This document shows positions 6,052 through 57,650 of a stretch of DNA of 64,000 nt, piece by piece. Made by a program: the position numbers and the translations under genes. Where the stretch lies: assembly GCF_056746865.1 (NCBI RefSeq), contig NZ_CM163382.1; one strand, 5' to 3'. Within the stretch, counting starts at the first letter, position 1, and each line of letters begins with the position of its first letter. The notes beneath the pieces were generated by a model, which had not been told where the DNA came from, did not search any database, and saw only the letters and a program-made list of their open reading frames with translations.

Positions 6052-8225
<2,174 letters not shown>

Positions 8226-8506: not shown

Positions 8507-9727
8507 TTAATCTTTCAGCTTACGCATTACCAGCGTGGCGTTGGTGCCGCCGAAGCCGAAGCTGTTAGACATCACGGTGGTCAGTTCGCGATCGGTCGTT
8601 TCGGTCACGATGTTCAGACCCGCAGCCTGTTCGTCCAGCTCTTCAATGTTGATGCTCGGGGCGATAAAGCCGTGTTCCAGCATCAGCAGAGAGTAGATAG
8701 CTTCCTGTACGCCAGCAGCGCCCAGAGAGTGACCGGTCATTGCTTTGGTTGCAGAAATCGCCGGGCTCTTATCGCCGAACACTTCACGGATAGCCGCCAG
8801 CTCTTTCACGTCGCCAACCGGAGTCGAAGTACCGTGGGAGTTCAGGTAGTCGATTGGGGTATCAACACCGTGCATCGCCATCTTCATGCAACGCACTGCG
8901 CCTTCGCCAGACGGAGCAACCATGTCTGCGCCATCAGACGTTGCGCCGTAGCCAACGATTTCAGCGTAGATATGAGCACCACGTGCCAACGCGTGTTCCA
9001 GTTCTTCGACCACCACCATACCGCCGCCGCCAGCGATAACGAAACCGTCACGGTGAGCGTCATAAGTACGGGAGGCTTTTTCCGGGGTGTCGTTGTATTT
9101 GGTAGACAGCGCGCCCATTGCGTCGAATTCGCAGGCCATTTCCCAGCACAGCTCTTCGCCGCCGCCAGCAAACACGATATCCTGTTTGCCCAGTTGGATC
9201 TGCTCTACTGCGTTACCGATACAGTGCGCGGAAGTCGCACATGCGGAGCTGATGGAGTAGTTAACGCCGTGAATCTTAAACGGCGTGGCGAGGCAGGCAG
9301 AAACGCCGGATGCCATCGCTTTGGTGACCACATACGGGCCTACCGCTTTCAGGCCGCGCGGGCCGCGCATTGCGTCAGCGCCGAACACCTGAAAACGCGG
9401 GGAACCGCCGCCGGAACCTGCAATCAGGCCAACGCGCGGGTTATTCTGGTAAGCTTCCGGGGAGAGGCCAGCATCTGCAATTGCCTGCTCCATAGAAAGG
9501 AATGCATAAATGGATGCGTCGCTCATAAAGCGCACAACTTTGCGGTCAATGAGGCCAGTGGTATCCAGTTTTACGTTGCCCCAGACGTGGCTACGCATGC
9601 CGGAATCCTTCAGCTCCTGAGAGAAAGTGATCCCTGAACGTCCTTCACGCAGAGATGCCAGGACTTCCTGCTGGTTATTACCGATGCTGGAAACAATGCC
9701 CAGGCCAGTAATCACTGCACGTTTCAT
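8507..9727 (-). CDS. fabB: 3-oxoacyl-ACP synthase I (KAS I)
   Basis: 406-aa [25 protein letters not shown] with condensing-enzyme active-site region (Cys...His...His). Confidence 0.95.
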
Positions 9728-9819: not shown

Positions 9820-11892
<2,073 letters not shown>

Positions 11893-11905
11893 CCAGCTTT
11901 GGCAG

Positions 11906-12006
<101 letters not shown>

Positions 12007-12012
12007 CGCAAC

Positions 12013-12291
12013 TTACTGCTGTGACGCCTGCTGAAACAGGTTTTCCCACATATCGGTCACCAGCGCCTGGTCACGCGGCGACAATTCACCGGCACCAATG
12101 GCTTTTTCCAGACTCTGGCTAACGGTCGTATGTACCGCCTGGGCGGAGTGGTCATCACCACTTTCCAGTTCTGCGATGGCTAATGTCAGGTGGCCACGCA
12201 AATACCCACTGGCAAACAACTCATCATCACTGGCATGGTCAACCATACCGTCGATTAATGCCAGAATGCGTGATTCAAACTCCGCGATCAT
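12013..12291 (-). CDS. yfcL: Uncharacterized protein YfcL
   Basis: 92-aa ORF at the end of the aroC-mepA-yfcA-epmC-yfcL cluster. Confidence 0.75.
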
Positions 12292-12324
12292 CTTCTTTCC
12301 TCATTGTAAAACGTGGCGCTGGCT

Positions 12325-12873
12325 TTAGTTGAGCGCTTCCGGCCACGGGAACTGTTCCGCCGTAAGTTCCGGCGTGTGATAATAATTTTGTAATGCTTTA
12401 ATGAAGCGTGCCGGGCGTTCAGGAATGCCGTTTTCCAGATAATCCATCACCTGTGCATGTACCCGCCGTTGAAACACCACACGATCCGGTTCGAAGTCGC
12501 CTTCCAGATTGTCGCAACTGACGTTAAACGGATATCCCGCCGCCACACAGAACAACCAGTCCAGCGCCTGCGGCTTCACTTCAACATCTTCAAACTGGCT
12601 TTGCGTTTGGGCATCGCGTCCGTCCGGGCAATACCAGTAGCCGAAATCAACCAGCTCACGGCGCGCTTTCCCGGCAATACACCAGTGCGAAATCTCGTGG
12701 ATGGCGCTGGCATAAAAGCCATGAGCAAAGACGATTCGGTTATACGGTACTTCCGCATCAGCAGGAAGATAGATCGGTTCGTCGTCGCCTTTAATCAGAC
12801 GGGTATTAAAATCATCGGCAAAGCAGCTATTAAAAATTTCAATCAACTGCTCATAGTGGTGTGTACTGTTCAT
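12325..12873 (-). CDS. epmC: Elongation factor P hydroxylase EpmC (YfcM)
   Basis: 182-aa ORF MNSTHHYEQLIEIFNSCFADDFNTRLIKGDDEPIYLPA; synteny. Confidence 0.85.
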   Translation of the reverse strand: MNSTHHYEQLIEIFNSCFADDFNTRLIKGDDEPIYLPADAEVPYNRIVFAHGFYASAIHEISHWCIAGKARRELVDFGYWYCPDGRDAQTQSQFEDVEVKPQALDWLFCVAAGYPFNVSCDNLEGDFEPDRVVFQRRVHAQVMDYLENGIPERPARFIKALQNYYHTPELTAEQFPWPEALN

Positions 12874-13682
12874 TAGTTCATCCCCAACCAGTGGAGGATC
12901 TCCTGTCCGTGGCTATCGTAAAGTAATTTGGCACTCATCACCGCTGAGACAATAACAATCATCGGGCGGATCAGCTTTTGTCCTTTGCTCAACACCAGTC
13001 GTGAACCCATGCGCGCGCCGAGGAACTGCCCCACCAGCATCACGAATCCTGTCGCCCAAATCACTTTGCCACCGAGAATAAACAGCAGTAAACCGCCGAT
13101 ATTTGACGTTGCGTTGAGTAATTTGGCGTGAGCCGTGGCTTTGGCGAGGTTGAATCCGCACAGCGTAACAAAGGCCAGCGCGTAAAACGATCCCGCTGCC
13201 GGACCAAAGAAGCCGTCATAAAAACCGACGCAGCCACCGGCAATTAACGCGAAGGGTAAACCGTACATCCGGCGCTGGCGATCTTCTTCACCCAGCTTTG
13301 GCATCAGCAAGAAATAGAGGCCGATACAAATCACCAGAATGGGCAAAATCTGCCGTAAGACATCAGCCTGAACATACTGCACCAGCAATGCGCCGCTCAT
13401 TGAGCCGACAAAGGTCATGGCGATATTGAGTTTCTGATCGCTTAAACTAACCACTTTGCGGCGAATAAAGTAGATAGTGGCGGAAATAGAGCCACCGCAG
13501 GCTTGCAGTTTATTGGTTGCCAGCGCGTTAGCGGGAGACATCCCCGCCGCCATCAATGCCGGAATGGTGAGTAACCCACCGCCACCGGCAATCGAGTCGA
13601 TAAATCCCGCCAGCATGGCGACAAAAAAGAGAACTCCCAGCAACAGCGGGGAAACCATAAACAGGCTATTAAACGTTTCCAT
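12873..13682 (-). CDS. yfcA: TauE/SafE-family membrane protein YfcA
   Basis: 269-aa hydrophobic ORF with duplicated Gly-rich TM motifs; start/stop overlaps with neighbours. Confidence 0.85.
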   Translation of the reverse strand: METFNSLFMVSPLLLGVLFFVAMLAGFIDSIAGGGGLLTIPALMAAGMSPANALATNKLQACGGSISATIYFIRRKVVSLSDQKLNIAMTFVGSMSGALLVQYVQADVLRQILPILVICIGLYFLLMPKLGEEDRQRRMYGLPFALIAGGCVGFYDGFFGPAAGSFYALAFVTLCGFNLAKATAHAKLLNATSNIGGLLLFILGGKVIWATGFVMLVGQFLGARMGSRLVLSKGQKLIRPMIVIVSAVMSAKLLYDSHGQEILHWLGMN

Positions 13683-14506
13683 TAGATCACGTGCTCATCC
13701 AGTAGCGCCTGGCAGGAAGGCGGCAACGGAGGCGGTGTCTTCTTCTCAGGCTTTGTTGTTCCCGGTTTTGGAGGTTCAAACCAGCTTTGCAGTTCTGCCC
13801 CGCAACCATCGCCTGGTGGCGGTAAAGGTTGATCTTCACACTCCAGACTATCGGCAGGACAACGTAATCGTACATGCATATGCGCGCGATGCTGGAACCA
13901 GGGTCGCACTTTGCGCAACCAGTCGCGATCGGTGCCCGCATCAAGGCAAAGTTGTTGTTTAATCGCCGGATTAACAAAAATGCGCGTGACGTCTTTGTCC
14001 TGGGCGGCGAGTTTGATCAAGCTGAAAATTTCTGGCTTCCACAGCGTCGGAACAACGTGTTTACCGTCGCGGGAAACTAAATCTAACGCTTGCGGGCGCA
14101 AGAGCTGCGCGGAGGTCCAGCGTGTTTTTGGCAGTTGCAGGAAGATGTCCACATCCAGTCCGGTCTGGTGGCTGGCGTGACCGCCGTTGAAACGACCACC
14201 AGCAGGCATCCCCATATCGCCAATCAGCACCGTGCCCAAGCTCAGATTGCTCACCTGGCTACTCAGACGCTGGATAAACATCACCAGATCCGGGTGTCCG
14301 AAATAGCGACGCTGATCGGTACGCATGACCTGATAATGTTCGGACTGTATCGGCAGCGTGTCAGCGCCGACGATACAGCCATTAGAAAAACTGCCTATCG
14401 ATTGTGCGCTACCCGGCACAGGTTGGGTTATTTTTTGCCACGGCGTCGCTGCCAGGCTGGCGCTACTGGCAAGCAGGGCCAGCAGCGCAATCGCGGTTTT
14501 GTTCAT
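13682..14506 (-). CDS. mepA: Penicillin-insensitive murein DD-endopeptidase MepA
   Basis: 274-aa ORF with signal peptide [19 protein letters not shown] and HxH metallopeptidase region. Confidence 0.9.
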
Positions 14507-14509
14507 TTT

Positions 14510-15595
14510 TTACCAGCGTGGAATATCAGTCTTCACATCGGCATTTTGCGCCCGCTGCCGTAACAGGTGATCCATTAAAACGATCGCCAGCATCGCTTCT
14601 GCGATCGGCACCGCACGGATCCCGACACAAGGATCGTGACGGCCTTTGGTGATCATCTCAACTTCTTCGCCAAAGCGGTTAATGGTACGCCCTGGCACGG
14701 TAATGCTGGAGGTTGGCTTCAGCGCCATATGGGCAATGATTTGCTGCCCGCTGCTGATACCGCCAAGAATGCCGCCCGCATGGTTGCTCTGGAAACCGTC
14801 TTTGGTGATTTCGTCGCGGTTCTGGCTGCCACGCAGCGCCACCACGTCAAAACCATCACCAATTTCTACGCCTTTCACCGCGTTGATGCTCATCAGCGCA
14901 TGGGCGATGTCGGCATCCAGGCGGTCAAAGACCGGCTCGCCAAGTCCGGCGGGGACGCCACTGGCAACAACGGTGACTTTCGCGCCGATGGAGTCGCCCT
15001 CTTTTTTCAGCGCGCGCATCAGTTCATCTAACGCGTCGATTTTGTCCGGGTCCGGGCAGAAAAACGGATTTTGCTCGACCTGCGACCAGTCTTTGATTTC
15101 CAGCGGAATGTCACCCATCTGGGTCAGGCAGCCGCGAATCTCAATGCCAAATTTCTCGGCGAGATATTTTTTTGCAATCGCCCCTGCCGCCACGCGCATG
15201 GCGGTTTCGCGGGCGGAAGAGCGCCCGCCGCCGCGATAATCGCGCAGACCGTATTTTTGTTCGTAGGTGTAATCGGCATGGCCTGGACGGAAAACGTCTT
15301 TAATGGCGCTGTAATCCTGAGAACGCTGGTCGGTATTTTCGATCAACAAGCCAATGCTGGTGCCAGTAGTAACACCTTCAAAAACACCGGAGAGTATTTT
15401 GACCTGATCCGGCTCGCGGCGCTGGGTGGTATAGCGCGATGTCCCAGGGCGACGACGATCAAGGTCATGTTGCAGGTCCGCTTCCGTCAGCGGAATGCCT
15501 GGCGGAACACCATCGACGATGCAGCCGAGCGCCAGCCCGTGCGATTCGCCGAAGGTGGTTACGCGAAAGAGTTGTCCAATTGTGTTTCCAGCCAT
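14510..15595 (-). CDS. aroC: Chorismate synthase
   Basis: ORF contains [20 protein letters not shown], classic AroC N-terminus; start trimmed to ATG at 15595 (361 aa). Confidence 0.95.
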
Positions 15596-15629
15596 CACGG
15601 CTCCGTTATTGTTGTGTTTGCGTGTTTAC

Positions 15630-43321: not shown

Positions 43322-44860
43322 TCACCCAACGCCTTTCGCTGTAAACGGCGGTTTCGCAAACCAAACCAATACCGTAAGTAAGATAAAAGCAATAGCCGCC
43401 ATACGGAAAATCTCATTTGCAGAAATTGAAAGTGACTGCTGAGTTATTTCATTATTAATTTCATTAAGAACCCCTGAAAGCGAACCATAGTATTTATCCA
43501 TAATTTGTGACGATGAATTAAACACGGGGTTAAATTGATCGATTGTTGCTGTCAACTGACTATGGTGTAATGATTCTCGGCGTCCCCACAGCGTCATTGT
43601 CAACGACGTACCAACTGATCCTGACAAGGTACGAAAAAAATTACTCATACTCGAGGCATTGGCAAATTTATTATCTGGCAAACCTGAAAACGAAATCGTT
43701 GTTAAGGGTAAAAAGAAACAGGCGACGGCGAATCCCTGAAAAAACTGTGGCAAAATGATGCCTGTAAAATCAATCGTTGGCATAAATGTCACAGAACGCC
43801 AGTAATAGCAAACCGCATACATTAAAAAACTAAATGTCACCAACAACCGCATATCAATTTTGTTGCCATAACGTCCTATCAAAGGTGATATTAATAGCGG
43901 CATGATGCCGATGGGCGCATAGGCAAGTCCGGCCCATATCGCATTATACCCCATCGTTTCCTGGAGTAACTGCGGCATAAGGACTATCGCCCCAGAGTAA
44001 AATAAATACGCGCATGTGATACTCACAATACCAATGGTGAAATTACGGGACTTAAACAAACTGAGATCAAGAATCGGGTTCTCTGAGGTCGACTCCCAAA
44101 TGACTAAAGAAATCAGAGAAATAACTGACACTACTGTTAGTATTATTATTGTACTCGAGTTGAACCAATCCAGGTCGCGCCCTTTATCAAGCATTATCTG
44201 CAAGCCACCAACACCGAGCACTAACAGGGTCAGTCCTGGTAGATTCATTTTGACCGGTGAAGTCTCAGTTTCTCTTCCTTTAAGTAAGGTTAAGCATAAT
44301 GTCAGAACGATAATCCCCATAGGGACATTGATTAAAAATATCCAACCCCAGCTAAAGTTATCGCAAATATAGCCGCCCAATATCGGCCCACATATCGGAG
44401 CGATAATTACGGTCATTGACCATAATGCCAAAGCAAATGTTCTTTTTTCTGGCGGATAATTCCTTAATAATAAACTCTGTGACAGTGGAATTAACGGCCC
44501 CGCCATTAACCCCTGAACGACTCTAAAAAATATCAGCACATCAAGATTGGTCGATAGGCTACACATTAAGGAAGACAGCGAAAAAAAAGTGACTGAAAGT
44601 AAAAATAATCTTAATTCGCCTATTCTTTGTGCCAGCCTGCCGGTAACAGGGATCGCAATGGCATTTGCTACGCCAAACGAAGTGATAACCCAGGTGCCTT
44701 CGTCTGTTGATGCTCCCAGAAAGCCAGATATTGTCGGTATTGCGACGTTAGAAATAGTGGAATCCAACATTTGCATAAACGTCGCTAATGACAATGCAAT
44801 AGTGACGCACCATAACGTCCCACCGGTTAATGGTGCCGGAGTTGATTTAGTGATTGCCAT
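43322..44860 (-). CDS. emrY: Multidrug efflux MFS transporter EmrY (EmrB paralog)
   Basis: 512-aa 14-TM ORF; overlaps emrK stop. Confidence 0.9.
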   Translation of the reverse strand: MAITKSTPAPLTGGTLWCVTIALSLATFMQMLDSTISNVAIPTISGFLGASTDEGTWVITSFGVANAIAIPVTGRLAQRIGELRLFLLSVTFFSLSSLMCSLSTNLDVLIFFRVVQGLMAGPLIPLSQSLLLRNYPPEKRTFALALWSMTVIIAPICGPILGGYICDNFSWGWIFLINVPMGIIVLTLCLTLLKGRETETSPVKMNLPGLTLLVLGVGGLQIMLDKGRDLDWFNSSTIIILTVVSVISLISLVIWESTSENPILDLSLFKSRNFTIGIVSITCAYLFYSGAIVLMPQLLQETMGYNAIWAGLAYAPIGIMPLLISPLIGRYGNKIDMRLLVTFSFLMYAVCYYWRSVTFMPTIDFTGIILPQFFQGFAVACFFLPLTTISFSGLPDNKFANASSMSNFFRTLSGSVGTSLTMTLWGRRESLHHSQLTATIDQFNPVFNSSSQIMDKYYGSLSGVLNEINNEITQQSLSISANEIFRMAAIAFILLTVLVWFAKPPFTAKGVG

Positions 44861-46023
44861 TAAAGTTGTCCATTATGCGAAATAATGTTGCTAATTTCTT
44901 TTTCTATCGGACTGGTATCGATAACTAAAGCCTTACTGGTATAAGCAGGCATGGACGTCACGGTTGAAGCCAGATCGGGCATCTCGGCAATGTCTTCGTT
45001 CCTGGTATCAATAGTTGCAGTCATCGATAAACCAATGCGCAAGGGATGTTCCATGAGTTCTTTTGGATCAAGAGAAACTTCAACCGGGACACGCTGAACG
45101 ATTTTGATCCAGTTCCCTGTCGCATTTTGTGCAGGTAATAAGGAGAACGCATTGCCGGTTCCCATATTGATCCCTGTCACCCGACCATGAAACACAACAT
45201 TTTCACCATAGAGATCGCTGATAATATTGACCGATTGACCAATCCGTACATCCGTGAGTTGTGTTTCTTTAAAGTTGGCATTAACCCACATTTGACGTGC
45301 CGGTACAACAGCCATTAACGATTGTCCGGGACTCACTGTTTCGCCAACCTGAACGCTTCTCTGGGCAATATAGCCGGTAACAGGACTCTTAATATCCGTA
45401 CGTTTAAGCACTAACCAGGCTTCTTTGGTTGCATCCGCCGCTTCAACGACTTGTGGCTGACGGTTTAATGGTGTGTTCATTACTAAAGCTTTATTCGCTT
45501 TATAAGCCTGAATAGCAGCATTCAATGCCGCTTTGCTACTTATTAACGTATCTTTGGTATGCTCCAGCGTTTCTTTTGAAATAACCCCCTGCTTCGCTAA
45601 AGGTACACGACGGTTATAATCTTCTAAAGATTGTTGATACTGAATACGTGCTGAAGCGACTTCGGCACTGTATTGTTTATCCTGTAAGTACAGTTTATTC
45701 GTTTGCCGAACAATATTGGCCAGATTATTTTTAGCTTTATTGAGTGCGATAGTGGCATCAGTCTTATCCAGTGAGACTAAAATGTCACCCTGTCGAACGT
45801 AGTTCGTATCTTTATGATTAACGACAGTGACGCTGCCTGAAACTTGTGCAGAAATTGGATCTGCATTCCCCGTGACATAGGCGTCATCTGTACTAATCAT
45901 GTCTTCTAATTCCATTGACCAATAGGCATAGGCACCTGAAAACGCAATAAATAAAACTACCGCCAATAAAGAAAAGTATTTTCTTCTGTTAGAATGTTTT
46001 TTATTTGAATTAATCTGTTCCAC
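44860..46023 (-). CDS. emrK: Multidrug efflux membrane-fusion protein EmrK (EmrA paralog)
   Basis: 387-aa ORF MEQINSNKKHSNRRKYFSLLAVVLFIAFSG, HlyD-family. Confidence 0.9.
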   Translation of the reverse strand: MEQINSNKKHSNRRKYFSLLAVVLFIAFSGAYAYWSMELEDMISTDDAYVTGNADPISAQVSGSVTVVNHKDTNYVRQGDILVSLDKTDATIALNKAKNNLANIVRQTNKLYLQDKQYSAEVASARIQYQQSLEDYNRRVPLAKQGVISKETLEHTKDTLISSKAALNAAIQAYKANKALVMNTPLNRQPQVVEAADATKEAWLVLKRTDIKSPVTGYIAQRSVQVGETVSPGQSLMAVVPARQMWVNANFKETQLTDVRIGQSVNIISDLYGENVVFHGRVTGINMGTGNAFSLLPAQNATGNWIKIVQRVPVEVSLDPKELMEHPLRIGLSMTATIDTRNEDIAEMPDLASTVTSMPAYTSKALVIDTSPIEKEISNIISHNGQL

Positions 46024-46196: not shown

Positions 46197-46213
46197 TTCT
46201 TACGCCTGTAGGA
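46197..46213. promoter_or_regulatory. EvgA-box-like inverted repeat in emrK-evgA divergent promoter
   Basis: TTCTTACGCCTGTAGGA: half-sites TTCTTAC / GTAGGAA-like, same architecture as the boxes at 56186 and 57216. Confidence 0.55.
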
Positions 46214-46438
46214 TTAGTGAGAAGACTTATAGTGCTAATGTGAAACTATAAATCATCGGTACAATCCCTGATTTTATTGTTGACATTTCATTTATGCCGA
46301 CTATTTATATGGTATACTTGTCGAATTATCTTAAAGGAAGCTCAAATTTTCTTATTTTTATTGAGAAAATGAGATGATGCCTTATGTCTGTATTACTACA
46401 GGGAGAAGGGAGATGCTTCATTGCAAAGGGAATAATCT

Positions 46439-47053
46439 ATGAACGCAATAATTATTGATGACCATCCTCTTGCTATCGCAGCAATTCGTAATTTATTGAT
46501 CAAAAACGATATTGAAATCTTAGCAGAGTTGACTGAAGGCGGAAGCGCCGTTCAGCGGGTGGAAACACTTAAGCCTGATATCGTCATCATTGATGTCGAT
46601 ATCCCCGGAGTTAACGGTATCCAGGTGTTAGAAACGCTAAGGAAGCGTCAATATAGCGGAATTATTATTATCGTCTCCGCTAAAAATGACCATTTTTACG
46701 GGAAACATTGTGCTGATGCTGGCGCTAATGGATTCGTGAGTAAAAAAGAAGGCATGAACAATATCATTGCGGCTATTGAAGCTGCAAAAAATGGCTACTG
46801 CTATTTCCCCTTCTCTCTCAACCGGTTTGTTGGAAGTTTAACGTCCGACCAGCAAAAACTCGACTCCTTATCGAAACAAGAAATTAGTGTCATGCGATAT
46901 ATTCTTGATGGCAAGGATAATAATGACATTGCTGAAAAAATGTTCATCAGCAACAAAACTGTCAGCACTTATAAAAGTCGCCTGATGGAAAAATTAGAAT
47001 GTAAATCACTGATGGATCTTTACACATTCGCACAACGTAACAAAATCGGCTAA
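46439..47053 (+). CDS. evgA: Response regulator EvgA (NarL/FixJ family)
   Basis: 204-aa ORF MNAIIIDDHPLAIAAIRNLL with receiver domain and C-terminal LuxR-type HTH. Confidence 0.95.
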   Translation: MNAIIIDDHPLAIAAIRNLLIKNDIEILAELTEGGSAVQRVETLKPDIVIIDVDIPGVNGIQVLETLRKRQYSGIIIIVSAKNDHFYGKHCADAGANGFVSKKEGMNNIIAAIEAAKNGYCYFPFSLNRFVGSLTSDQQKLDSLSKQEISVMRYILDGKDNNDIAEKMFISNKTVSTYKSRLMEKLECKSLMDLYTFAQRNKIG

Positions 47054-47057
47054 CCAC

Positions 47058-50000
47058 ATGAAGTTTTTACCCTATATTTTTCTTCTCTGTTGTGGTCTTT
47101 GGTCGACCATAAGTTTCGCAGACGAAGATTACATCGAATATCGTGGCATCAGTAGTAACAACCGTGTCACACTTGATCCACTACGTCTGAGCAACAAGGA
47201 ATTACGTTGGTTAGCGAGCAAGAAAAATCTTGTGATTGCAGTACACAAGTCCCAAACGGCTACGTTGTTGCATACCGATTCGCAGCAACGGGTTCGTGGT
47301 ATTAATGCTGATTATTTAAATCTGTTAAAAAGAGCGTTAAATATCAAATTAACACTCCGGGAATACGCCGATCATCAAAAAGCAATGGACGCGCTGGAAG
47401 AAGGTGAAGTCGATATAGTGTTATCACATTTAGTTGCTTCGCCGCCTCTTAATGATGACATTGCTGCAACCAAACCACTGATAATTACCTTTCCGGCGCT
47501 CGTCACCACCCTTCACGATTCAATGCGACCGCTTACCTCATCAAAACCAGTAAATATTGCTCGAGTAGCAAATTATCCCCCTGACGAGGTAATTCATCAA
47601 TCATTTCCAAAAGCAACAATTATCTCTTTTACAAATTTATATCAGGCATTAGCATCCGTCTCAGCCGGACAGAATGATTACTTTATTGGTAGTAACATCA
47701 TTACCAGCAGTATGATTTCCCGCTATTTCACTCACTCCTTAAATGTAGTGAAATATTATAACTCGCCGCGTCAATATAACTTTTTCTTAACCAGAAAAGA
47801 TTCAGTCGTTCTTAATGAAGTACTCAATCGGTTTGTTGATGCTTTAACAAATGAAGTTCGCTATGAAGTATCACAAAATTGGCTTGATACAGGAAACCTG
47901 GCCTTTCTGAACAAACCATTAGAACTGACTGAACATGAAAAACAGTGGATAAAGCAGCATCCCGATTTAAAGGTGCTGGAAAATCCTTACTCCCCTCCCT
48001 ATTCTATGACGGATGAAAATGGCTCGGTTCGGGGCGTTATGGGGGATATTCTTAATATTATTACCTTGCAAACAGGTTTAAATTTTTCTCCGATCACCGT
48101 TTCACACAATATCCATGCCGGAACACAGCTTAATCCCGGCGGATGGGATATATTACCTGGTGCTATTTATAGTGAAGATAGAGAAAATAATGTTTTATTT
48201 GCTGAAGCCTTCATAACAACGCCTTACGTTTTTGTCATGCAAAAAGCGCCTGACAGTGAACAAACATTAAAAAAAGGAATGAAAGTTGCCATTCCCTATT
48301 ATTATGAGCTTCATTCGCAATTAAAAGAGATGTATCCGGAGGTAGAGTGGATAAAAGTCGATAACGCCAGCGCTGCATTTCACAAGGTCAAGGAAGGTGA
48401 ACTTGATGCTCTGGTCGCGACACAGTTAAATTCGCGTTACATGATCGACCATTACTATCCTAATGAACTTTATCATTTTCTTATTCCCGGCGTTCAGAAT
48501 GCATCACTTTCGTTCGCTTTTCCTCGCGGAGAACCGGAACTTAAGGATATTATTAATAAAGCACTGAATGCAATTCCCCCAAGCGAAGTTCTGCGCCTGA
48601 CGGAAAAATGGATTAAAATGCCCAATGTGACCATTGACACATGGGATCTCTATAGCGAGCAGTTTTATATTGTTACGACATTATCCGTTTTATTAGTTGG
48701 CAGTAGCCTTTTATGGGGATTCTACCTGTTACGCTCAGTTCGTCGTCGTAAAGTCATTCAGGGTGATTTAGAAAACCAAATATCATTCCGGAAAGCACTC
48801 TCGACTCCTTACCGAATCCAACTTATGTCGTAAACTGGCAAGGTAATGTCATTAGTCACAATAGTGCATTTGAACATTATTTCACTGCTGATTACTACAA
48901 AAATGCAATGTTGCCATTAGAAAACAGTGAATCACCCTTTAAAGATGTTTTTTCTAATACGCATGAAGTCACAGCAGAGACGAAAGAAAATCGAACAATA
49001 TACACACAGGTATTTGAAATTGATAATGGCATCGAGAAAAGATGCATTAATCACTGGCATACATTATGCAATCTGCCAGCCAGCGATCATGCTGTTTATA
49101 TTTGTGGTTGGCAAGATATTACCGAGACGCGTGATTTAATTCATGCTCTCGAAGTAGAGAGAAATAAAGCGATCAATGCAACTGTCGCAAAAAGTCAGTT
49201 TCTGGCAACAATGAGTCACGAAATAAGAACACCAATAAGCTCCATTATGGGCTTCCTGGAACTTCTGTCGGGTTCTGGTCTTAGCAAGGAACAACGGGTG
49301 GAGGCGATTTCACTTGCCTACGCCACCGGACAATCACTCCTCGGCTTAATTGGTGAAATCCTTGATGTCGACAAAATTGAATCGGGTAACTATCAACTTC
49401 AACCACAATGGGTCGATATCCCTACTTTAGTCCAGAACACTTGTCACTCTTTCGGTGCGATTGCTGCAAGCAAATCCATCGCATTAAGTTGCAGCAGTAC
49501 GTTTCCTGAACATTACCTGGTTAAGATCGACCCTCAGGCGTTTAAGCAGGTCTTATCTAATTTACTGAGCAATGCTCTCAAATTTACCACCGAGGGGGCA
49601 GTGAAAATTACGACCTCCCTGGTTAACATTGATGACAACCACGCTGTAATCAAAATGACGATTATGGATTCTGGAAGTGGATTATCACAGGAAGAACAAC
49701 AACAACTGTTTAAACGCTATAGCCAAACAAGTGCAGGTCGTCAGCAAACAGGTTCTGGTTTAGGCTTAATGATCTGCAAAGAATTAATTAAAAACATGCA
49801 GGGTGATTTGTCATTAGAAAGTCATCCAGGCATAGGAACGACATTTACGATCACAATCCCGGTAGAAATTACCCAACAAGTGGCGACTGTCGAGGCAAAA
49901 GCAGAACAACCCATGACACTCCCTGAAAAGTTGAGCATATTAATCGCGGATGATCATCCGACCAACAGGCTATTACTCAAACGCCAGCTAAACCTATTAG

Positions 50001-50650
50001 GATATGATGTTGATGAAGCCACTGATGGTGTGCAAGCGCTACACAAAGTCAGTATGCAACATTATGATCTGCTTATTACTGACGTTAATATGCCGAATAT
50101 GGATGGTTTTGAGTTGACTCGCAAACTCCGTGAGCAAAATTCTTCCTTACCCATCTGGGGGCTTACAGCCAACGCACAGGCTAACGAACGTGAAAAAGGG
50201 TTAAATTGCGGCATGAACTTATGTTTGTTCAAACCGTTGACCCTGAATGTACTGAAAACACATTTAAGTCAGTTACACCAGGTTGCGCATATTGCACCTC
50301 AGTATCGCCACCTTGATATCGAGGCCCTGAAAAATAATACGGCGAACGATCTACAACTGATGCAGGAGATTCTCATGACTTTCCAGCATGAAACGCATAA
50401 AGATCTACCCGCTGCGTTTCATGCGTTAGAAGCTGGCGATAACAGAACTTTCCATCAGTGTATTCATCGCATCCACGGTGCGGCTAACATCCTGAATTTG
50501 CAAAAGTTGATTAATCTTAGCCATCAGTTAGAAATAACGCCCGTTTCAGATGACAGCAAGCCTGAAATTCTTAAGTTGCTGAACTCTGTTAAAGAACACA
50601 TTGCAGAGCTGGACCAGGAGATTGCTGTTTTCTGTCAACAAAATGACTAA
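47058..50650 (+). pseudogene. evgS: Hybrid sensor kinase evgS interrupted by a -1 frameshift (single G missing near 48803); reading frame split into 47058..48833 and 48803..50650
   Basis: First frame ends ...ISFRKALSTPYRIQLMS*; the +1 frame from 48803 reads DSLPNPTYVVNWQGNVISHNSAFEHYF... and continues through HisKA (ATMSHEIRTPISS), HATPase, receiver and HPt domains; 582 + 615 codons = 1197, the expected EvgS length. Confidence 0.75.
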
Positions 50651-50704: not shown

Positions 50705-51850
50705 TTACGATGAGAATTCCTGGCGAATTTGTTCCCCATGCTGGTCGAGCGTTGCCGCTCCCGGCATAACATGCGGGTCCGCGCAGCCGCTGATTTTTAT
50801 CGGATTACCCGGCATCATTATTCCCCCGGCTTCAATCAACATATTTCTCGCCTGAGTTTGTGGCAAATTAATGGCCTCAGCCACACTTAATAACGGCGCT
50901 ACGGGTACACCAACTTCATGTATTCTGGCTAACCAAACTTCAGCTGCCTGTGTTTTTAACGTCCGCTCAATATATTGTTTAAGAATAGCCTGGTTTTGTA
51001 CGCGTAAAATATTGCTGATAAATCGGGGATCATCAACCAGCTCCGTCAGATCCAGTGCCTGACATAACGCAGAAAAAAGCTTGTCATTACCACAACAAAT
51101 CGTAATCGGCTTATCCTGAGTATCGAAAACATCAAAAGGTGCCATGTAGGGGTGACGATTTCCCAGACGTTGTGGTGACTTCCCAGTCGCGATATATGCC
51201 ATCAGTCCGTGCTCCAGAAAACTCAGCGTGGCATCAAACATCGCTATATCGACATGCGCCCCTCGTTGGCTCTTTTCGCGGCCATAAAGTGCACTCACTA
51301 TTCCACTGAATAAATAGACACCGCCACATAAATCCGCAAGAGAGGTACCCACGCGCACTGGCGGAGCATCAGGGTATCCCGTTTCCATCATTATCCCGCT
51401 CATTGCCTGAATGATGGTATCGTAGGCAGGAGCATCTTTTAGCGGGCCGGTATGCCCAAAACCTGACGATGAAGCATATATGAGACGCGGGTTGATTTCT
51501 TGTAGCGTTTCCCATGAAAACCCCAGTTTTTCCATTGTACCTGGGCGAAAATTCTCAGCTAATACATCCGCTTGTTTAAGCATATTTATAAATATGCTTT
51601 TATCGTGATCATTCTTTAAATCAAGAACCACACTCTCTTTGCCATGATTAATAAAACTGTAATAGAGTGACTGTCCATCCACATAGGGACCAAATGTGCG
51701 GGTATCATCACCATGACCCGGCGGCTCAACTTTAATTACCCTTGCGCCCATATTACAAAGAAGTTGAGTTCCGAAAGGTCCATTAAGGACATGTGTCATA
51801 TCGATAACTAATAAGCCTTCAAACGGCCCTTTGCATTCATTATTTGTCAT
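50705..51850 (-). CDS. yfdE: Acetyl-CoA:oxalate CoA-transferase YfdE (CaiB/BaiF family III CoA-transferase)
   Basis: ORF contains MTNNECKGPFEGLLVIDMTHVLNGPFGTQLL; start trimmed to ATG 51850. Confidence 0.88.
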   Translation of the reverse strand: MTNNECKGPFEGLLVIDMTHVLNGPFGTQLLCNMGARVIKVEPPGHGDDTRTFGPYVDGQSLYYSFINHGKESVVLDLKNDHDKSIFINMLKQADVLAENFRPGTMEKLGFSWETLQEINPRLIYASSSGFGHTGPLKDAPAYDTIIQAMSGIMMETGYPDAPPVRVGTSLADLCGGVYLFSGIVSALYGREKSQRGAHVDIAMFDATLSFLEHGLMAYIATGKSPQRLGNRHPYMAPFDVFDTQDKPITICCGNDKLFSALCQALDLTELVDDPRFISNILRVQNQAILKQYIERTLKTQAAEVWLARIHEVGVPVAPLLSVAEAINLPQTQARNMLIEAGGIMMPGNPIKISGCADPHVMPGAATLDQHGEQIRQEFSS

Positions 51851-51923: not shown

Positions 51924-52868
51924 TTATGAAACCAGTCGACTGACATAAATCCACAAAGGAGCCGTGACGACAAAGCCCAGTACGCTCACAGCCAGTGACG
52001 CTGTACCAGTGCGGGTGTAGACATTAAACCGGCTGGCAATAATGATTCCGGAGAATGCCGGCGGTAAGGCGCCTGCCAGTACCATCATCTGCAAATGTTC
52101 GCTGTTCAAATGACATGCCATACCAACGAGAAGCAGCGCCAGTGGCATCAGAATTAGCTTCAGGAAGGTGTTATAAGCAATTTCGGCACTGAACTCGAAT
52201 TTATGTGCAGCCAGAGTCAACCCCGCAGCGAATACCGCCACCCCTGAGTTTGCCTTCGCAATCAGATTAAAGGTTGGGTCCCATGCTGCCGGAATTTTTA
52301 CCCCAACCAACACCAGGATCGTTGCCAGAACAGGTGCCCATACTACTGGCTCCTTTGCCGCAGAAATTAATGCGCTCAGATTACTATTCTTCTTACCATC
52401 CGCTCCTGAGGAAGGATTCAGCAAATACAGACCAATAGGAATAGTAATTGCGTTAACAATAATAGAAATAATTGCTACCACTAAACCTGTTGATACGGAA
52501 TCGCCATAAATAGGATCGAGAACTGCAAATCCCAGGAATCCGATGGTAGGTGAACCTGCAATTAATGCACATACTGCTGCTTCTGCATGAGTACGTTTAA
52601 AAAATTTGTAGCAACCAAACCAGGAGAAAAAGAAACATCCGACAATAACCACAAGTGATACAAGGGTCAGGCGAGTGTCCGCAAAAATCATTTCCCTGTT
52701 TGCCCGGGTAATAGAAACAAATAGGGCCGCAGGAAGAGCGTAGTTTAATACCAGTTTATTAAATGCCCGGGCTTGATCTTCTGAAAAAGTTTCTCGTCTG
52801 CCGCTAAAATAACCCAACAGCATGATTACGATAATAGGCAATAAATCGCCAATAAAAAATGTTAGCAT
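51924..52868 (-). CDS. yfdV: AEC-family (auxin efflux carrier-like) transporter YfdV
   Basis: 314-aa polytopic membrane [26 protein letters not shown]. Confidence 0.85.
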
Positions 52869-52936: not shown

Positions 52937-54631
52937 TTAATTACCAGCGACTTGTTTTGGGTTAAGTTTGGTAATATGGCCACTTTCAGTTCCTGCTGCA
53001 GGGTCGATGACCACATTAATAATGGTCGGTTTGCGCGACTGAATACCGGTGGTTAAAGCATGACGAAGTTCATCTGTCGTAGTGACGTTATAGCCAACGC
53101 CACGAAACGCATCCATTAATTTGTCATACCTTGCATGGTGCAATAGATCTGTTGGTGATGGTGCACCAGCGCCACTGAGATCAACACCGTCTCCTCTGTA
53201 GATGCCGCCATTATTAAAAATAACGATCGTCACCGGCAGGTTATATCGACAAATCGTTTCAATCTCCATCCCACTGAAGCCAAAAGCACTATCACCTTCA
53301 ATGGCGACAACCGGAGAACCAGAGGTCACGCTAGCACCGATGGCATAGCCCATACCGATGCCCATGACACCCCAGGTACCACAATCCAGACGGCGACGTG
53401 GTTTATACATATCAATAATATTTCGTGCATTATCCAGGGTATTTGCACCTTCATTAACTAAATAAATATCCTGGTTCTCGCGCAATACATCGCGCACAGC
53501 ACTTAATGCATTAAAGTAATTTAATGGTTGAGTATCTGTACTTAATTTTTCATGCATTTTTTGTGCATTTTGCTGCTTGTGGATATTTAAAATATCGCGC
53601 CATACCAGTGGAGTCGTAAATGTGTTTTGTTTCAGTTCTGCCAGCATACCTTGCATACTGGATGCAATATCGCCAACGACTGGCACAGCAATGGGGCGGT
53701 TGCTGTCAATTTCCTGCGGTTCAATATCCAGTTGAATAAACTGTGTATCTGCCGCCCATCCTTTTTTACCGTGTGCCAGTAACCAATTCAGTCGTGCACC
53801 AACAAGCATGACAACGTCAGCATTTGCCAGGGCAAACGAACGCGCAGTTGCCGCAGAAAGTGGATGTGTATCTTCGAGGATCCCTTTCGCCATAGACATT
53901 GGCAGGAATGGAATCTGGGCACTTTCAATAAATTCACGAAGCTGTTCATCCGCTTGTGAATACGCCGCGCCTTTGCCAAGGATAACTAATGGTCGTTCAG
54001 CTTTTGCTAAAAGCGAAATTGCGCTAGCGACTGACTTCGGGCATGGCAATAATGCTGGCGACGGATTTTCAACTTTTACAATCGTGGTTAACGCTTCGTC
54101 TTTTTCCATCGTCGCGGCCAGGACATTTGCAGGCAAATCAAGATAAACTCCGCCAGGGCGACCCGATACTGAGACCCGGATAGCGCGTGCCAATGCAATG
54201 CCAAGATCCTGCGGCTGATTAACGCGAAATGCTGCTTTGGCATACGGTTTTGCCGCATTCATTTGGTCCAGCTCTTCATAATCACCTTGCTGTAGGTCGA
54301 CGATCGCGCGGTCGCTGGAGCCGCTAATCATGATCATCGGAAAACCATTTACCGTTGCGTTGGCCAATGCGGTCAAACCATTGAGGAATCCTGGCGCAGA
54401 AACTGTCAGGCAGATCCCCGGTTTTTGGGTAAGAAAACCGCTTGCCGCAGCGGCATAGCCTGCCGACTGCTCATGACGAAAACCAATATAACGAATGCCT
54501 TCCGCCTGGGCATGGCGTGCCATATCCGTCACAGGAATACCTACAACACCATAAATAGTGTCAATATCATTCTGTTTTAATGCTTCAACGATGATATGCA
54601 TACCATCTGTCATTTGAAGTTGATCTGACAT
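52937..54631 (-). CDS. oxc: Oxalyl-CoA decarboxylase (ThDP-dependent)
   Basis: 564-aa ORF with ThDP-binding region ([31 protein letters not shown]). Confidence 0.92.
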
Positions 54632-54684: not shown

Positions 54685-55935
54685 TCAGATGGCGTGGTTT
54701 TGCTTCATTGCAGCAATTTCATCGTCGCTATAACCCAGCTCCTGCAATACAGCAGCGGTATGTTCACCTAATAGCGGCGCAGCTTTAATATCCGGCGTAA
54801 AGGCAGAGAATTTCATTGGACAACCAACTGTCAGATATTTTCCACGCAACGGTTGTTCCACTTCAACAACACTGCCACTTTGGCGCAAAGAGGGATCAAG
54901 TGAAATTTCTTTCATACTTAAAACCGGTGCACAAGGAATATCAAACTGAGTCAAATAGGCCACCGCTTCATGTTTATCAATAGTGACAGTGTATTTTTCG
55001 ATTTCAGCAAAAATATCGAAAATATGTGGCTGTCGGGCATGGGCTGTACTGTATGCCGGATCGGTAATCCAATCTGGTTTGCCGATGGCTTTACAGGTGT
55101 TTTCCCAGTTTTGCTCCTGAATAGTGAAATAAATATAGGCGTTAGGATCGGTTTCCCAGCCTTTACATTTCAGGATCCAGCCAGGCTGACCGCCACCACC
55201 CGCATTACCTCCGCGGGGAACTGCATCACCAAATGTGCCATTCGGATACTGCGGGTATTCTTCCAGATAACCCAATTTATCGAGACGCTGCTGGTCGCGT
55301 AATTTCACGCGGCAAAGGTTCAATACGGCATCCTGCATTGACATGGTGACTCGTTGCCCACGCCCCGTTTTTTCACGATGCAGCAAAGCAGCAAGTAAAC
55401 CGATCAGTAAATGCATTCCGGTGTTGCTGTCACCCAACGCTGCAGCGCTTACCAGCGGCGGACCGTCCCAAAAACCCGTAGTGGATGCCGCGCCACCCGC
55501 TGCCTGAGCAACGTTTTCATAGGCTTTTACATTCACATAAGGCGAACACTCATCAAACCCTTTGATCGAACCAAAAATCAGACGTGGATTGATTTCTTGA
55601 ATATGCTCCCAGGTGAAGCCCATGTGATCAATAGCCCCAGGATGAAAGTTCTCGACTAAGATATCAGCTTCGCGGATCAGCTTTTCCATTACCTCTTTGC
55701 CTTCCGCTGTTTTGGTATTTAATTCAATAGAACGTTTGTTACTGTTAAGCATGGTGAAGTAAAGCGCATCGATATCAGGAATATCTCGCAGCTGGTGACG
55801 CGTTACGTCACCAACGCCGGGACGTTCAATTTTAATGACGTCAGCGCCAAACCAGGCCAGCATTTGAGTACAAGATGGGCCAGATTGCACACCGGTGAAA
55901 TCGAGAACTTTAATTCCTTGAAGTGGAGTTGACAT
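54685..55935 (-). CDS. frc: Formyl-CoA:oxalate CoA-transferase
   Basis: 416-aa [46 protein letters not shown], family III CoA-transferase. Confidence 0.92.
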
Positions 55936-56185
55936 AGCAATACCTATTAGTTAATTAAATATGTGTTAATTTAGCGTTTATTTAAGACATAACGCCTCTA
56001 TAAATAATCCGCAAAATATCGTCGTAGCTGCACTCGATATTTTTAAATTCCTGTATCAAGTACTGAAAATCATTTCATCGCTACTTCCAATTCCTTTCTG
56101 CATGGTAAGTAGTGAGGACGAAAAGAAGAATATGATAAATATTGGTTCGCGGTAATCAGAGAGAGCCGCGACATTTGTGATGTTA

Positions 56186-56203
56186 TTCTTACAACTGTAA
56201 GAA
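56186..56203. promoter_or_regulatory. Perfect 18-bp palindrome TTCTTACAACTGTAAGAA upstream of frc (EvgA-box-like)
   Basis: Exact inverted repeat TTCTTACA-AC-TGTAAGAA about 250 bp upstream of the frc start. Confidence 0.55.
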
Positions 56204-56446
56204 GCGCCGGTGATTTACAAGTAAGGGTATGATTACGCTTTTTAAAGCGTACCATAAAACATAACATAATAAATGATTTGTGATGACACGGGATTATTGC
56301 GGTTTACTTTGAGGAAGATAAAATGCGAGTTTATAGAACCGCGAGCGCCAAATAATTTTATGACCACAATCTGTCGTATTGTGGTCATAAAAAATTGTCG
56401 GCTGGAGGGAGTTAAATCCTTTACCTCAATATACTGCCTGTCAGCA

Positions 56447-57079
56447 TTAGTTCACAAACAGTGCTTCGCTATCGACGATGATTCCATCTTCCGCACCTTT
56501 AAGCGCCAGGTTTGCCTCGTAGTATTGCTTTTTATCAAGCAGTTTCTGCGCATCAGCAAGTGCATTACGAGTCTGTTTGAGCGGCATCAGATATTGGTTT
56601 TCCATTACGCCAACACCGGCCAGGCGAAGCTCTTCCATTGCGCCCTTTTTATCCCCTTTCGCCATTTTTTCGTTGGCAATTTTTATCGCGGCTTCTTTTT
56701 CGGGTGTCGCTACATAACTCTCAGAAATTCCGATAGATGCATTAATGACAATATATTGGTCATCATTGACATTGGTTTTTTTTCCTGGCTTAGCGAACTT
56801 TGCCCATTCGGTACTGTCATCTGACAACAAAGCTGAAGCTTCATTGGTCAGTTCTTTTGCCTTTTCCGGATCGCCATGAAACAGAGCCAGGCGCGCTACC
56901 TGCACGTCACGCATCGCATATAAACCTTGTTCAGAGATACGCTCTGCTGCTGCCGTTTTCTGGGTTTGCTGAACTTGCTGAGTTTGCTGTTGTGCCGCTA
57001 CCGGTGCATTATCAGCCGCCCATACAGTTGAAGATGCCAGAATTGCTGTGACCATCGTAGCCATAATTAAACGTTTCAT
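56447..57079 (-). CDS. yfdX: YfdX-family periplasmic protein
   Basis: 210-aa ORF with signal peptide [21 protein letters not shown]; first gene of the yfdX-frc-oxc-yfdV-yfdE cluster. Confidence 0.88.
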
Positions 57080-57176: not shown

Positions 57177-57232
57177 ATCTTACAGTTGTAGTTATTATCG
57201 CAAGAAGTATTTTAGTCTTACAATTGTAGGAA
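57177..57232. promoter_or_regulatory. Two EvgA-box-like inverted repeats upstream of yfdX
   Basis: TCTTACAGTTGTAG (57177-57190) and TCTTACAATTGTAGGAA (57216-57232), 100-150 bp upstream of yfdX. Confidence 0.5.
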
Positions 57233-57374: not shown

Positions 57375-57650
57375 ATGAAAGTAAACTTAATGCTTTTTAG
57401 CTTATTTTTATTGGTCTCTATTATGGCATGCAATGTTTTTGCATTTTCTATTTCTGGTGGTGGTAGTGAGGCGAGCTATAAAGAGACGGAAAAAACGTCA
57501 GCGATGACGACCACACACTCTACAAAACTTCAGCCATCACAGGCGATTTTGTTTAAGATGAGAGAAGATGCGCCACCATTAAATCTCACAGAAGACATTA
57601 CGCCCCCTTTTTCGACAAAGGCGAATTATCTTATTCATCCTGTGCGATAG
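57375..57650 (+). CDS. ypdI: Small lipoprotein/secreted protein YpdI
   Basis: 91-aa ORF with signal peptide MKVNLMLFSLFLLVSIMACNVFA. Confidence 0.75.
   Translation: MKVNLMLFSLFLLVSIMACNVFAFSISGGGSEASYKETEKTSAMTTTHSTKLQPSQAILFKMREDAPPLNLTEDITPPFSTKANYLIHPVR

Follow-up and report, generated by a model that had tools for sequence, protein, structure and literature searches.

The closest characterized homologue of the Escherichia coli acid-response regulator EvgA is BvgA of Bordetella, which recognizes inverted TTTCCTA heptads located upstream of vir-activated promoters, fha included. At BvgA promoters, binding at the primary site is followed by the cooperative addition of further dimers in the direction of the −35 element. 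Another arrangement is found in the 7-2-7 sites of NarL (TACYYMT-N2-AKRRGTA), in which inverted half-sites exactly 2 bp apart are bound by a dimer of NarL/FixJ-type C-terminal domains. For EvgA itself, the box has been defined as an 18-bp inverted repeat, TTCYTACA-N2-TGTARGAA (Masuda & Church 2003, cited through PMC3720670), and an EvgA site was found in all directly regulated genes (PMC4283999). EvgA-binding inverted repeats are marked for yfdX and for yfdWUVE, the frc (yfdW) site being one of the two, in Fig. 2 of PMC3720670, and frc is listed among the promoters bound by EvgA in a review (PMC8147483). In constitutive evgS mutants, frc and oxc are among the most strongly induced genes, with frc displaying the highest fold increase (PMC4283999). 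An EvgA operator for frc is thus already known from these published repeats, and its regulation has been described since 2003 and is textbook-level for E. coli. EvgA binding at the frc promoter is taken here second-hand from this literature, in a search of which we found no usable published ChIP or SELEX data on EvgA.

Here, we analyze this operator in a 64-kb stretch of DNA (the window), starting from a prediction that was made from the sequence letters alone and that correctly picked out a real operator. The repeat is, very probably, an EvgA operator that activates a separate transcript of the oxalate-degradation genes frc-oxc-yfdV-yfdE under mild acid sensed by EvgS. This conclusion combines the observed motif, conservation, co-occurrence with evgAS and intervening hairpin with binding and induction reported in the literature. 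To what has been published, the analysis makes small additions, namely the near-universal invariance of the site, variation restricted to its spacer, and a common downstream element.

The inverted repeat and its gene neighborhood

Read directly from the window, positions 56186–56203 are TTCTTACAACTGTAAGAA. Each 8-nt arm is the exact reverse complement of the other, and the inverted repeat is real. The AC spacer at its center lacks self-complementarity: read on the reverse strand, the site is TTCTTACAGTTGTAAGAA, with 2 mismatches, and symmetry therefore covers 16 of the 18 positions in an 8+2+8 architecture. The original prediction had been headed a perfect 18-bp palindrome, which overstates this symmetry, and had described 8-nt half-sites with a 2-bp spacer, which is exact.

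Gene coordinates (Table 1) were obtained by annotation transfer from 118UI and MG1655 together with translation checks, and they confirm the predicted location of the repeat in the yfdX-frc intergenic region. A distance of 250 nt separates the box from the frc ATG (55935, minus strand), and the yfdX stop (56447) precedes the box by 243 nt; this places the box upstream of, and co-oriented with, an EvgA-induced gene. The genes frc, oxc, yfdV and yfdE are co-oriented and separated by gaps of 53–73 nt.

The evgS gene of the window contains a 1-bp deletion at 48800–48805 (CTCGGAC to CTCGAC relative to 118UI, to which 5000 of 5001 positions are otherwise identical) that splits it into open reading frames at 47058–48833 and 48908–50650. 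A search of 5426 complete RefSeq E. coli genomes found no copy of the deleted version, which may reflect an edit, a sequencing error or a mutation private to this strain. If the deletion is real, the kinase that activates EvgA would be broken in this strain, and acid induction through the box may not operate.

Table 1. Positions in the window of the frc box, related sites, associated promoter features and neighboring genes.
Feature	Position	Strand	Remark
emrK	44860–46023	-	
EvgA box, divergent emrK-evgA intergenic region	46197–46214	.	2 mismatches to consensus
evgA	46439–47053	+	NarL/FixJ-type response regulator; proposed box binder
evgS	47058–50650	+	
yfdE	50705–51850	-	
yfdV	51924–52868	-	
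oxc	52937–54631	-	
frc (yfdW)	54685–55935	-	formyl-CoA transferase; first gene downstream of box
candidate −10, TATCAT	56132–56137	-	by eye; TATTAT in some strains; 16 nt after CTGATT (56159–56154)
9-mer TCTCTGATT	56154–56162	-	24 to 32 nt past frc box; most informative downstream 9-mer of six promoters
conserved block, box and 19 nt on frc side	56167–56204	-	TAACATCACAAATGTCGCG
frc EvgA box	56186–56203	.	TTCTTACA-AC-TGTAAGAA; minus (frc-sense) strand, TTCTTACA-GT-TGTAAGAA
frc-proximal half-site	56186–56193	.	plus strand TTCTTACA; unchanged in 13 aligned strains
frc-distal half-site	56196–56203	.	plus strand TGTAAGAA; unchanged in 13 aligned strains
terminator-like hairpin	56356–56392	-	55 nt past yfdX stop; 15 pairs; tail TTATTT
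yfdX	56447–57079	-	own EvgA boxes upstream
yfdX box, gene-proximal	57177–57194	.	3 mismatches to consensus
yfdX box, gene-distal	57215–57232	.	1 mismatch to consensus; 38 nt from gene-proximal box
ypdI	57375–57650	+	

The repeat matches the EvgA motif

A bare 8+2+8 repeat is, on its own, unremarkable in the window, which contains six perfect ones against 1.2 ± 1.0 expected from Markov simulations. This abundance, with one such repeat only 30 nt away at 56234–56251, is what favors regarding the frc repeat as a chance product of AT-rich intergenic DNA that has no function. The match to the EvgA box is specific, unlike the bare repeat. The frc site agrees with TTCYTACANNTGTARGAA at every position, and at up to 3 mismatches this pattern is matched 4 times in the window against 0.58 expected, a number that 0 of 100 shuffles reach. 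The four matches (46197, 56186, 57177 and 57215) are all intergenic and near evgA. The sites that had been named as relatives of the repeat, at 46197, 57177 and 57216, are all present, the last of them beginning one position earlier than stated. Among the sites examined in the window and in MG1655, the frc box is the sole one with zero mismatches to the consensus.

We also scanned the window with a matrix trained solely on the safA, ydeP and yegR sites of MG1655, all of which are outside the window; the motif precedes safA by 111 nt, ydeP by 243 nt and yegR by 106 nt. By this measure of similarity to independently known EvgA promoters, position 56186 ranks first in 64 kb at 20.8 bits, above all 200 simulated null maxima (mean 13.1 ± 1.9, highest 19.5), and ranks two to four fall to 46197, 57215 and 57177. 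A matrix built from six sites likewise places 56186 at the top of the window (24.6 bits, with null maxima reaching 19.7). The motif scan proposed with the original prediction thus puts the predicted box first and the emrK/evgA and yfdX sites that it had named in the next three places.

On the frc strand, the neighboring repeat at 56234–56251, TACGCTTT-TT-AAAGCGTA, is upstream of the frc box, and its sequence is not as well conserved, with changes both in the divergent lineage and among the B2-like strains.

Sequence constraint on the box

A 1.5-kb query around the frc box is 100% identical to 118UI and finds a match in 5416 of the 5426 complete E. coli genomes, and the window is E. coli chromosome. 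A 31-mer that takes in the repeat together with 12 nt in the direction of frc is present without change in 5403 of the 5426, and across a 44-mer at the box these 5403 genomes show at most 2 mismatches. Among the matches, one belongs to a record labeled as a plasmid. Some E. coli strains carry an IS1 insertion in the region upstream of yfdX and frc, and one has yfdX annotated in two pieces.

We aligned the frc-yfdX intergenic region of 13 strains, including the divergent Escherichia SCPM-O-B-8794, which is 84% identical to the window over this region. Variable columns number 116 of 533. The conserved block of Table 1, read 56204–56167 in the direction of frc, is the only 38-column stretch of the 533-column alignment with no more than one variable column; within it, the 27 nt from 56193 to 56167 form the longest run free of any change. 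Its one variable position is the second base of the spacer (56194), where SCPM-O-B-8794 has C in place of T on the frc-sense strand. Similarly, in other strains, it is the spacer bases of the yfdX boxes that change, and their arms are kept. A dimer that contacts the arms and makes no use of the spacer would be expected to leave such spacer-only variation.

These data bear on two readings in which the repeat is not a binding site at all. That the repeat arose by chance is rejected on the matrix scan and the conservation: it is the top match to a matrix from independent loci, belongs to a motif family with four members where 0.58 are expected, lies in the block with the highest conservation between yfdX and frc, and has published EvgA binding (PMC3720670 and PMC8147483). 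We accord this reading next to no probability. The arms could also pair in a yfdX-frc read-through transcript, forming a 7-bp stem with a 4-nt loop that might act as a processing or attenuation signal. The predicted fold is weak (−6.1 kcal/mol, z −0.40) and equaled by 60 of 200 shuffles, no Rfam family matches the repeat, and the arms are invariant in the 13-strain alignment, with no compensatory changes. A repeat that folds no better than its shuffles is rejected as an RNA element, the chance of which we judge to be negligible.

The EvgA operator reading gains from comparison beyond E. coli, for which the cross-species matches listed comprised one Escherichia record, Moellerella, Providencia and distant taxa. 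In Escherichia of the SCPM-O-B-8794 type, the order evgA-evgS-yfdE-yfdV-oxc-frc-yfdX-ypdI is intact and all four boxes are present. Loss of the palindrome from orthologous regions with conserved regulation, which had been named as evidence against the original prediction, is therefore not what is seen in this divergent lineage. Among the matches listed, the frc loci closest after this one belong to Moellerella wisconsensis and Providencia stuartii; no box-like sequence was found upstream of frc there, and no evgA, evgS, yfdX or EvgA box within 10 kb. In these loci, the box therefore accompanies an adjacent evgAS and is missing where there is no evgAS inside 10 kb. Both this absence away from evgAS and the conservation of the arms rather than the spacer accord with an EvgA box.

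The same co-occurrence pattern weighs on the identity of the binding protein. A different dimeric helix-turn-helix regulator, for instance RcsB or GadE, might bind the repeat or share it with EvgA, as NarL/FixJ-family proteins recognize short AT-rich inverted repeats. The RcsB box follows the pattern TNRGA-N4-TCYNA, which by eye the frc box does not fit. RcsB is reported to regulate yfdX in Klebsiella, according to a title cited in PMC8147483. Against another regulator are the perfect fit to the EvgA consensus, the clustering of the site with sites of the EvgA regulon only, and its absence from frc loci that lack a nearby evgAS, and we regard such a regulator as very improbable and retain EvgA as the protein that binds.

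Two further features of these loci were noted. The emrK-evgA box of the divergent Escherichia (19729–19746 of its fetched locus) is a perfect consensus, TTCCTACAGGTGTAAGAA, whereas that of the window and of MG1655 has 2 mismatches; the quality of the evgA autoregulatory site thus differs between lineages. In Moellerella wisconsensis and Providencia stuartii (10001–15600 of the fetched loci), frc-oxc-yfdV is followed by a second frc-like gene, 70–80% identical to Frc, in the place of yfdE.

Features common to EvgA-dependent promoters

We compared six promoters anchored on their boxes: frc, yfdX (gene-proximal box), emrK, safA, ydeP and yegR. Of the 9-mers that follow the box, the one richest in information, 24 to 32 nt past the box in all six, carries 8.2 bits against a null of 4.6 ± 0.5, and none of 2000 trials with random offsets attains this value. 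Its sequence is TCTCTGATT in frc and yfdX and AGTCCTATT-like in emrK, safA, ydeP and yegR, and all six promoters have TC(C/T)T within it and CA at 9 and 10 nt past the box. As frc/yfdX and safA/ydeP look like paralogous pairs, the independent observations behind these counts are nearer four than six. The 9-mer might be contacted by EvgA as a secondary site, or it might belong to the −35 region.

Promoters of the EvgA regulon might therefore share a geometry that extends beyond the box, with CA and the 9-mer serving as low-affinity half-sites on which several dimers assemble toward −35, by analogy with BvgA. If so, the frc box, with its symmetric arms, would nucleate this assembly more strongly than any other site of the regulon. 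This reading is weakened by the paralogous promoter pairs, and published footprints may already cover it; we offer it as speculation and consider it rather unlikely.

The box-N22-CTCTCTGATT module is common to frc and yfdX, and safA and ydeP have a longer common module of their own. These modules suggest promoter duplication. The two yfdX boxes, 38 nt apart, constitute a 38-bp tandem unit of box plus 20-nt linker (window 57177–57232), and strains GE3 and 0H23 have three such units in place of two (1379–1472 of the fetched loci). The copy number of EvgA sites at the yfdX promoter thus varies between strains. Most EvgA boxes are asymmetric toward the regulated gene, with a near half-site that is TGTAAGAA-like and a far half-site, nnCCTACA, in which the outer bases are degenerate; examples are 46197–46214 and 57215–57232 of the window, and 6072–6089 and 8731–8748 of fetched locus L002. 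The frc box is the only symmetric EvgA box among those examined.

Transcription of frc and the genes downstream

The intergenic region also bears on whether frc has a promoter of its own. A terminator-like hairpin follows yfdX (Table 1), with a predicted fold of −25.8 kcal/mol (z −7.3) and, in strain EC488, a compensatory replacement of A-U by G-C. Its tail, AAAAUUAUUU, is a poor to moderate U-tract that is interrupted, and termination at this hairpin may thus be partial. No terminator-like site was detected in the gaps between frc and oxc, oxc and yfdV, or yfdV and yfdE. The strength of the yfdX hairpin favors an frc promoter that is separate from that of yfdX. The one Rfam match of the region, mir-6128 to this hairpin, is sub-threshold and was set aside as spurious.

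A sigma-70 scan of the frc strand between the box and frc found nothing that reaches 9 of the 12 consensus positions. A poor match to the sigma-70 consensus is usual at activator-dependent promoters. Using the candidate −10 picked by eye, we would place the start of the frc transcript near 56125, with low confidence, such that the box would be centered near −70 and the leader would be ~190 nt long. A literature search found no mapped transcript start for frc.

The main alternative for the transcription unit accepts that EvgA binds the box and proposes that frc-oxc-yfdV-yfdE is mainly transcribed by read-through from the yfdX promoter. In that case, the box would specify no promoter of its own and might only boost or fine-tune expression, keep additional EvgA in reserve, or form a loop with the yfdX boxes, which are 1 kb away. 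The weak U-tract of the hairpin and the lack of a good sigma-70 consensus 3′ of the box are compatible with such read-through, and the cluster is commonly named as one yfdXWUVE operon in the literature. However, the hairpin is very stable, conserved and marked by a compensatory change, and the frc box has the fixed-offset downstream element that is seen at known EvgA-dependent promoters. In addition, yfdX is induced by orders of magnitude more than yfdWUVE (PMC4759549), which fits separate units, and separate induction of yfdX and yfdWUVE is stated in PMC3720670. Predominant read-through is, in our assessment, quite unlikely. Some frc expression may nevertheless arise by read-through from yfdX, and this is the most serious qualification of the preferred reading rather than a rival identity for the repeat. 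The original claim of an EvgA box driving frc-oxc-yfdV-yfdE independently of yfdX is supported by the motif, its conservation, the co-occurrence with evgAS and the hairpin between yfdX and frc.

Proposed mechanism

On the preferred reading, a phosphorylated EvgA dimer, encoded 9 kb away in the window, would bind the repeat as a high-affinity operator. Each 8-nt arm would be read by one helix-turn-helix domain, with the 2-nt spacer left unread. The bound dimer would then activate a weak, activator-dependent sigma-70 promoter situated between the box and frc; we infer its contact mode with RNA polymerase and the positions of the −10, the −35 and the transcript start. The output would be a frc-oxc-yfdV-yfdE transcript with a long leader, probably of the length estimated above, so that mild acid sensed by EvgS would switch on the proton-consuming oxalyl-CoA decarboxylation cycle. 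The box would thereby explain how mild-acid sensing by EvgS reaches the oxalyl-CoA decarboxylation genes separately from yfdX.

Comparison with known EvgA, BvgA and NarL sites

The frc box has the same 18-bp architecture and the same half-site as the boxes of the EvgA regulon at ydeP, safA-ydeO, yegR, emrKY/evgAS and yfdX. Like the others, it is positioned 100–250 nt upstream of the induced gene, with the distance of 250 nt at frc approached by that of 243 nt at ydeP, and it shares with them the common 9-mer 24 to 32 nt past the box. It differs in that it alone combines zero mismatches with two arms of the TTCTTACA type, whereas the others are asymmetric and have the half-site nearer the gene closer to consensus.

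The sites of BvgA resemble the frc box in the core of the half-site (TTCCTA against TTCYTA), in a primary repeat that lies well upstream of −35, and in recognition by a dimer that depends on phosphorylation and comes from the same family of regulators. The conserved elements downstream of the frc box are only suggestive of the spreading of additional dimers that occurs at BvgA promoters. The NarL 7-2-7 sites have the same 2-bp separation of inverted half-sites, but the half-site sequence is different and is 7 nt rather than 8 nt in length, and a NarL site is not an EvgA target. The likenesses to BvgA and NarL describe how the box works and not the family to which it belongs. At the level of sequence, every feature tested points to the EvgA box, binding and mutational dependence are reported in published work, and the frc box belongs to the EvgA box family.
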